Assembly: GCF_044324875.1 (NCBI RefSeq)
Contig: NZ_CP172185.1
Source: Escherichia coli
GTDB taxonomy: Bacteria > Pseudomonadota > Gammaproteobacteria > Enterobacterales > Enterobacteriaceae
Direction: 5' to 3' (one strand)
DNA length: 64,000 bases
Shown: positions 51,915 through 52,693 of the stretch, in pieces
Position numbering within the stretch: the stretch's first letter is position 1
How the letters are laid out: each line of letters begins with the position of its first letter
Notes under the pieces: generated by a model
What the model was told of the DNA's origin: nothing
The model's input: the letters and a program-made list of their open reading frames with translations, nothing else
Databases searched by the model: none
Position numbers and translations under genes: made by a program

Positions 51915-52402
51915 TCTGTTATTCTCCTGTATTATTACTTCACCAGCCAGAACGGTAGTGCGGAGCAAAAATACAGTGATAAGAATCCTCTTTTATTAAT
52001 TTAATAATGCCAGGAATATTATTGTGTATAATATGCGCCCTCAATTTAAGCAGCAGAAAACGACTGGGATTAAAATCCTTAAATTATAAACATATACAAC
52101 TTTGTAAAGGTGGTTATAATAAACCTGATTACTTTAACGTCTGTATACCTGCACTGCTGATATCACAAAACAATAAAAATCCTGGGTAATATCTCTGATG
52201 ATTGAATGAGAAATTCACGATGTCTGGTGAGAATTCTGTTCAAAACGAGGAATGCAGACGTACACGTGGCAGGTATGGACTTCCACCGATTTAACTTTTT
52301 TCCTTCCTTGTATTTACACATCACACATTTTGCGCTACAAAAATTTCACGTGGCACGCACCACGTGATCCGTAGAAAAGCCTCTTGTTACGAATTTCGTA
52401 AA

Positions 52403-52434
52403 CCGCACGTCTGTCTGGTCGTGCGGATTTTTTA
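52403..52434 (+). terminator. Intrinsic-terminator-like hairpin plus T-run
   Basis: CCGCACG-N10-CGTGCGG followed by ATTTTTTA. Confidence 0.4.
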
Positions 52435-52654
52435 TCCGTCAACTTCACATGAAACCCGCCAGATCACTGTTTCCGGATTCAGACATCAGGCATATTATCA
52501 TCCACAATGTCGTGAACAAGATCACGCTTTTGCAATTCCTTTATTGATCGAAAGCAGTTAATCACGGAAATTAATTACTGGAGTGAAAGCATTTGCTATG
52601 TAAACATTCCCAGAAGACATCTTCATGTTGAATATTATTCCTTATTGACTACAC

Positions 52655-52687
52655 CCCTCTGACAGAATTTTCAGAGGGGTTTTTTTA
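52655..52687 (+). terminator. Intrinsic terminator (GC hairpin plus T8)
   Basis: CCCCTCTGA-CAGAATTT-TCAGAGGGG followed by TTTTTTTA; lies just 3' of tfa on the opposite strand. Confidence 0.6.
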
Positions 52688-52693
52688 TCAGTT

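Follow-up and report, generated by a model that had tools for sequence, protein, structure and literature searches.

The gap between the adhesin gene eib and the tail fibre assembly gene tfa raises a question of origin, as it lies between two minus-strand genes and yet carries what look like transcription terminators on the plus strand. In the window (the whole stretch of 64,000 nt of Escherichia coli DNA that was analysed), this gap runs from the eib ATG (51914) to the tfa stop codon and measures 779 nt. Its right-hand 490 nt had been singled out in a preliminary description, which proposed either a small antisense or regulatory RNA or a bidirectional terminator shielding eib from tail-gene read-through. 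The analyses presented below indicate that 52205-52693 is probably a recombination scar from prophage cargo swapping and not a dedicated regulatory locus.

Layout of the eib-tfa gap

The following features frame the gap:

49856 to 50311, minus strand: gene of a sigma-factor-like HTH protein, the constant companion of eib
50373 to 51914, minus strand: eib, a YadA-like trimeric autotransporter (RefSeq 'YadA-like family protein')
51915 to 52205, minus strand: eib upstream region, the cassette's own AT-rich DNA (31-32% GC), not homologous to the AR_0085 locus described below
52093 to 52120, plus strand: sigma-70 promoter-like site, TATACA-16-TATAAT, 10/12 matches, the only one in the gap
52694 to 53269, minus strand: tfa, tail fibre assembly (DUF4376), the last gene of the tail operon according to the ORF list and the RefSeq product names

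The start of eib lies behind the Shine-Dalgarno sequence AGGAG and agrees with the RefSeq start, while tfa bears the RefSeq name 'DUF4376 domain-containing protein' and has its stop codon at 52694-52696. The eib promoter and leader are presumed to lie within 51915-52205. The promoter-like site on the opposite strand of this region would yield a plus-strand RNA of ~310 nt that stops at the first hairpin of the interval (T1). On the other side of the module, an IS256-family transposase gene (48332-49492, plus strand) stands in place of the dinI/attR side and reads antisense towards the HTH gene and eib.

Hairpins and palindromes of the interval

The structured and unstructured parts of the interval are as follows:

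52346 to 52367, minus strand: palindrome, TCACGTGG-cacgca-CCACGTGA, a perfect 8-bp inverted repeat with a 6-nt spacer
52387 to 52401, no strand assigned: second palindrome, TTACGAA-T-TTCGTAA, perfect and small, between the first palindrome and T1
52403 to 52435, plus strand: T1, intrinsic-terminator-like, a 7-bp GC-rich stem and then ATTTTTTAT
52436 to 52593, no strand assigned: T1-T2 spacer, conserved and 94% identical to the AR_0085 locus, with no conserved ORF or promoter-like site
52594 to 52652, no strand assigned: variable spacer upstream of T2, with a 26-bp indel (52594-52619) and several unrelated forms
52653 to 52687, plus strand: T2, intrinsic-terminator-like, a 10-bp stem, 8-nt loop and T7, abutting the tfa stop

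The preliminary description had reported two plus-strand hairpins with T-runs, opposite in orientation to the flanking genes, and both are present. The stem of T1 (CCGCACG/CGTGCGG, 52403-52409/52420-52426) is followed on the plus strand by the U-tract AUUUUUUAU and lies ~110 nt 3' of the stop codon of a ykgJ-like gene end (see below). That of T2, ACCCCTCTGA/TCAGAGGGGT at 52653-52680, is followed by T7 (U7 on the plus strand), and only 7 nt separate the end of this T-run from the tfa stop codon. Folding energies were controlled with 200 dinucleotide shuffles for each structure. The plus-strand RNA of T1 reached -14.3 kcal/mol (z -3.9, 0/200 shuffles as good) and T2 reached -18.0 kcal/mol (z -4.6, 0/200). 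All structures had z between -3.1 and -5.3 with 0-2/200 shuffles as good, and the fold-energy check that had been suggested for the hairpins and the palindrome thus came out in their favour.

The palindrome is real, although it had been placed at 52339-52360 and actually lies 7 nt to the right of this. It scored z -3.1 on the plus strand and -3.35 on the minus strand, where the fold reaches -14.2 kcal/mol. Because the minus-strand hairpin is followed by AAATTTTTG, it was classed in the scan as a minus-strand terminator-like site; its U-tract, AAAUUUUUG, is interrupted and weaker than those of T1 and T2. The second palindrome also folds into a hairpin in the plus-strand prediction. A terminator scan of 1.2 kb (51800-53000) recovered three sites against 0.9 +/- 1.1 in shuffled sequences, and it missed T1 because the loop of T1 exceeds 8 nt.

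A stable GC-rich stem-loop with a 3' U-tract, as in intrinsic terminators, is therefore found in T1 and T2 on the plus strand and in the palindrome on the minus strand. Both the sequence and the folds lack a minus-strand U-tract for T1 or T2, and the idea of a bidirectional terminator consequently misfits these two hairpins and holds only insofar as the palindrome resembles a terminator when read on the minus strand. An intrinsic terminator would also be expected to follow a gene of like orientation. Such a gene exists in two relatives of the locus, and the window retains just its last 27 codons.

A ykgJ-like gene end beside tfa

The interval begins with the following feature:

52211 to 52294, plus strand: remnant of a ykgJ-like (CxxCxxCC family) gene, its last 27 codons, KFTMSGENSVQNEECRRTRGRYGLPPI, and the stop

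A search for copies of tfa that keep T2 in the absence of eib brought up the locus of E. coli AR_0085 (L039). Here, as in E. coli TUM1886 (L047), an intact plus-strand ykgJ-like gene converges on the same tfa, and past this gene come the palindrome, T1, spacer and T2 known from the window, with eib absent from the locus. TUM1886 harbours both forms, the eib-bearing one and the one with the intact ykgJ-like gene. The gene product is a 109-aa 'YkgJ family cysteine cluster protein', which in AR_0085 matches PF03692 (CxxCxxCC) with 42.8 bits against a cut-off of 23. Residues 83-109 of this protein align with window 52211-52291 at 18/27 identical positions (BLASTP, E 3e-13; also recovered by tblastn). 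The presence of the same T1 3' of the intact gene marks it as the probable terminator of the ykgJ-like gene itself.

At the DNA level, window 52212-53715 and AR_0085 4686-6156 share 94% identity over ~1.5 kb, and TUM1886 is 100% identical over the 477-bp query that extends from the ykgJ-like gene through T1. Identity to AR_0085 is uneven: 80% in the remnant, 98.6% in the 3' UTR (palindrome, second palindrome and T1) and 97.6% in T2, with only 27% of columns identical in the variable spacer and no similarity left of ~52205. This contrast between remnant and 3' UTR is explained by a recombination breakpoint, although a function of the 3' UTR beyond that of a fossil could also account for it. The AR_0085 copy is itself ~84% identical to chromosomal ykgJ. 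The exact 3' UTR together with an intact gene occurs in only two complete genomes of the collection, and exact-pattern scans over one genome per species returned neither T1 nor the palindrome-T1 spacer, so that a donor of the 3' UTR was not traced by them.

The feature at 52211-52294 is a remnant and not a gene, since it has no N-terminal cysteine cluster, no intact frame and no Pfam match: taken alone it reached no Pfam model, and only codons 83-109 are present, with no N-terminal ykgJ-like fragment elsewhere in the window. The statement that the interval has no convincing ORF is thus right for intact genes and overlooks this gene end. An IS66-family (ISCro1-like) element lies inside the collagen-repeat tail-fibre gene both in the window (54844-56415, minus strand) and in AR_0085 (7592-10207, plus strand), in opposite orientations, and the tail-fibre gene of TUM1886 is uninterrupted.

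Allelic variation of the interval

Among 23 distinct sequences of the interval, the core (52350-52460) is invariant, as are T1 and the palindrome. Variation falls into blocks, namely a 100-bp biallelic segment (52061-52160), an 84-bp deletion, the 26-bp indel and a scrambled segment (52594-52652). The stems carry no substitutions, and a paired change is seen only in T2, which in some alleles has lost one C together with one G (C4/G4 to C3/G3). A metagenome scan yielded 27 loci with 89.5-98% identity over the matched stretch, again with an invariant core. This invariance most likely reflects recent common descent.

The 84-bp deletion involves a pair of short repeats:

52263 to 52271 and 52347 to 52355, no strand assigned: direct repeats CACGTGGCA, two 9-bp copies with starts 84 bp apart

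The 84 bp between the repeat starts are missing from L011 and L032, which have thereby lost the stop codon of the remnant and the minus-strand T-run 3' of the palindrome. A small mobile element was considered and rejected in favour of the simpler reading, a deletion between direct repeats, as the segment lacks terminal inverted repeats and AR_0085 has an imperfect first copy of the repeat. Within the remnant, four of five SNPs change the amino acid, some of them in the conserved YGLPP tail. Non-synonymous SNPs and a deletion that removes the stop codon are what would be expected of a dead gene end.

The remaining blocks lie outside the core. The two alleles of 52061-52160 are ~55% alike between near-identical flanks; this block, which includes the gap's single promoter-like site, could have been exchanged as a promoter or regulatory cassette serving eib. 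The -35 element of that site (52093-52120) is not retained in the second allele. A 1-bp deletion in L008 and L036 breaks a 32-aa ORF in the T1-T2 spacer. At the far end, the 52594-52619 indel and the scrambled sequence upstream of T2 occur in at least three unrelated versions among the alleles.

In a second type of eib (type 2; L010 and L040), the junction with the same tfa flank lies at 52528; T2 is kept, T1 is missing, and the palindrome is missing even though the HTH gene is kept. This is an independent junction. Conservation in other eib loci, which had been proposed as a check, holds for the core in the 23 sequences and fails for T1 and the palindrome at the type 2 junction. T2, on the other hand, stays with tfa in eib type 1, in eib type 2 and in the intact ykgJ context of AR_0085 and TUM1886.

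Distribution of the interval and database searches

The interval is carried by 370 of 5426 complete E. coli genomes at 90-98% identity. The usual homologous block corresponds to window 49574-52773 and takes in the sigma-like HTH gene, eib and the interval as well as the 80 bp at the end of tfa (52694-52773), which travel with the eib module in chromosomal islands. Some 350 genomes have the module in such an island and not in a prophage. The right edge of the island is a transposase fragment (L001 6624-6803), the translation of which we take to resemble IS66 TnpA, and which cuts tfa at 52773, 80 bp before its stop; this truncation marks the island as a prophage relic. The true prophage order, J-(lom)-stf-tfa-[interval]-eib-HTH-dinI-attR, was recognised from annotation in L010, L011 and L046, and homology likewise reaches into tfa in two metagenome loci (L012 and L020). 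The interval also occurs with a truncated eib on the conjugative IncI plasmid pNDM5_LS003 (L045, NZ_OP290546.1 15864-24261), beside floR, where the truncated gene is annotated as 'Tat pathway signal sequence protein'. The same truncated eib adjoins sul2/ISCR2 in chromosomal loci L002, L003 and L005.

Searches for a known RNA or protein in the interval returned nothing above threshold. Rfam 15 cmscan of 49500-55000 (E up to 1) gave VrrA as its best hit, with 25.8 bits against a gathering threshold of 50 (E 0.32), in an alignment that falls essentially on the terminator. Six-frame fragments of the interval had no match in Pfam or PHROGs, and there is no RefSeq (PGAP) annotation under it in the 370 genomes. 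A 59-aa plus-frame fragment matched three of 5.8 billion proteins, one labelled E. coli and two that are nameless NCBI entries, and all three look like spurious ORFs of the same locus. The interval DNA had no match in the phage collection, a single match in the plasmid collection, to a plasmid carrying the island fragment, and a single match in the viral-contig scans, to a contig of the chromosomal island form.

Recurrence in diverged prophages

The same architecture was observed in more distant loci. In L044, a ykgJ-like gene with a frameshift precedes a plus-strand terminator (2385-2403) that abuts the tfa stop. Phage 1720a-02 carries dinI, a ykgJ C-terminal fragment and a plus-strand terminator (1836-1859) abutting the stop of a 'tail fiber protein' gene (1871-2542, minus strand), and in L048 the series int-dinI-ykgJ converges on tfa and overlaps it. 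Fragments of ykgJ are present in 52 phage records, mostly of Stx-converting phages. A Stx1 phage has a ykgJ N-terminal fragment beside dinI, with nleC as cargo in the slot equivalent to that of eib. The same terminator scan found no terminator-like site in this nleC locus, so the architecture is not universal.

Another eib prophage, that of E. coli SW071619 (L043), has a non-homologous eib-tfa gap of 807 nt (1700-2506). It contains three plus-strand terminator-like hairpins (five scan sites against 0.6 expected) and an exact 16-nt repeat, the copies of which are 177 nt apart, suggesting a duplicated unit with each copy ending in a terminator. A search of this gap against Rfam (E up to 1) gave nothing meaningful. 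The repeat units were compared with the T1-T2 segment of the window as possible kin and showed no real similarity.

Origin of the interval

The scar reading rests on directly observed homology, synteny, junctions and thermodynamic hairpin quality, and it can be laid out as a sequence of events. The ancestral prophage end would have had a plus-strand ykgJ-like gene converging on minus-strand tfa, in some relatives with a dinI-like gene ahead of it. The 3' UTR of the ykgJ-like gene would have contained two small palindromes and the intrinsic terminator T1, and past T1 there would have been a spacer of ~220 nt and then a second plus-strand terminator, T2, against the tfa stop. The plus-strand polarity of the hairpins would be inherited from this convergent gene pair. 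An eib cassette, made up of eib, the sigma-like HTH gene and ~290 bp of its own AT-rich upstream DNA, would then have replaced everything to the left of ykgJ-like codon 83, and the last 27 codons, the 3' UTR, T1, the spacer and T2 would have been left stranded between eib and tfa.

T1 and T2, although orphaned by truncation of their gene, are probably still competent plus-strand stops. They would block transcription arriving from the cargo/attR side, antisense to eib, before it enters the tail genes; candidate sources of such transcription are dinI, host read-through and, here, the IS256-family transposase gene (48332-49492). The palindrome is older than the eib cassette, as loci without eib also have it. 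Read on the minus strand, it may attenuate tail-operon read-through ahead of eib, in which case eib would rely on the AT-rich DNA of its own upstream region.

Alternative explanations

The alternative that fares best, unlikely as we consider it, is a purpose-built two-way insulator, which on the minus strand would keep late tail read-through out of eib and on the plus strand would keep antisense transcription out of the tail genes. A palindrome that is terminator-like on the minus strand combined with T1 and T2 on the plus strand fits such a device, but T1 and T2 are without minus-strand U-tracts, and in L011 and L032 the 84-bp deletion takes the minus-strand T-run of the palindrome as well. 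Moreover, late lambdoid transcription is antiterminated by Q, which makes a single hairpin a weak barrier to it. The L043 gap, with three plus-strand terminator-like hairpins in non-homologous DNA, and the plus-strand terminators that abut the tfa stop in L044 and a tail-fibre gene stop in L041 also speak for insulation, and stacks of this kind abutting tfa could be an insulator against antisense cargo transcription. However, all three elements exist in loci without eib, and they were therefore not built for it. Any insulating effect also fits the scar explanation, and the insulator is hence no true alternative to it.

A plus-strand small RNA, either of ~310 nt from 52093-52120 to T1 and antisense to the eib leader, or a shorter one ending at T2, is improbable. 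Two good plus-strand terminators without an intact gene upstream would invite this reading, but the intact ykgJ-like context already accounts for both of them. The invariance of the core can likewise be attributed to recent common descent, and the promoter-like 10/12 site at 52093-52120 loses its -35 element in the second allele. The segment 52436-52690 of the plus strand folds with z -3.8; even so, it corresponds to no Rfam family, the scan found no promoter-like site between T1 and T2, and the 60 nt upstream of T2, with the 26-bp indel, are the most variable part of the interval. The antisense or regulatory RNA envisaged at the outset thus received no positive support from the Rfam search, from the promoter scan or from the variable DNA upstream of T2. 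Overall, there is only a small chance that a plus-strand RNA from 52093-52120 to T1 tunes eib, that a T1-T2 small RNA exists or that an insulator has been selected.

It is very improbable that the palindrome (TCACGTGG-N6-CCACGTGA) is an operator controlling eib and bound, for example, by the co-carried sigma-like HTH protein. Such a role would suit a perfect and invariant 8-bp inverted repeat with a related CACGTGGCA copy 84 bp upstream, but the palindrome lies ~430 bp upstream of the eib ATG and outside the cassette's own upstream DNA, occurs at the AR_0085 and TUM1886 loci, which lack both eib and the HTH gene, and does not occur in the second eib allele, despite the same HTH gene. A small protein encoded in the interval is the least credible option of all, as the ORFs of 20-65 codons found on both strands have no Pfam or PHROG match, returned in the protein search just the three E. 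coli same-locus ORFs, are disrupted in natural alleles by indels of 1, 26 and 84 bp and have no PGAP annotation in 370 genomes.

Implications and relation to known systems

The significance of the scar is mostly corrective: a conserved, unannotated 0.5-kb gap with odd terminators mimics a regulatory RNA locus and is instead junction debris, a record of how the cargo end of a lambdoid prophage lost its ykgJ-like gene to an eib adhesin cassette. The debris also offers a dated and ordered picture of cargo swapping at a hot spot, with ykgJ-like, eib (by two junctions) and nleC in one slot. For eib itself, the real limit of its own upstream DNA is 51915-52205, and this is the place to seek its promoter; the literature on eib and EibG does not cover the upstream region or the promoter.

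Among the closest known systems is attB-in-PP_2 (Nakamura et al. 2021, PMC8112680), an element that combines the ykgJ/ecpE intergenic region with the 5' part of ykgJ and is used by other phages as an attachment site. The same study assigned the ykgJ/ecpE-derived DNA of lambdoid prophages to a chromosomal origin in E. coli or a near relative. Common to both cases is prophage-borne DNA ~81-84% identical to chromosomal ykgJ, located at the cargo end of lambdoid prophages beside dinI and effector genes. Unlike attB-in-PP_2, the window keeps only the last 27 codons and a 3' UTR, which shows no homology to the flank of chromosomal ykgJ. Homology in the window starts at codon 83 (52211-52212), with none to the ykgJ/ecpE intergenic region or the 5' end of ykgJ by which attB-in-PP_2 is defined.

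T1 and T2 resemble the intrinsic terminators of convergent genes in having a GC-rich stem-loop and a U-tract after a gene end, facing the convergent neighbour. They differ from them in that those of the window have been orphaned by truncation of the gene they served. Prophage moron or cargo loci downstream of tail-fibre genes include lambda lom/bor, the T3SS effector loci of Stx phages and the eib prophages of ECOR-9. As in these, eib and the HTH gene form a self-contained cassette between stf-tfa and dinI/attR, in the same slot that nleC occupies in Stx1 phages; unlike them, the feature described here is the junction debris beside the cassette and not the cassette itself. The interval is thus a real, unannotated feature of a well-known kind, namely the fossil end of a gene, together with its terminators, at a cargo junction of a prophage.
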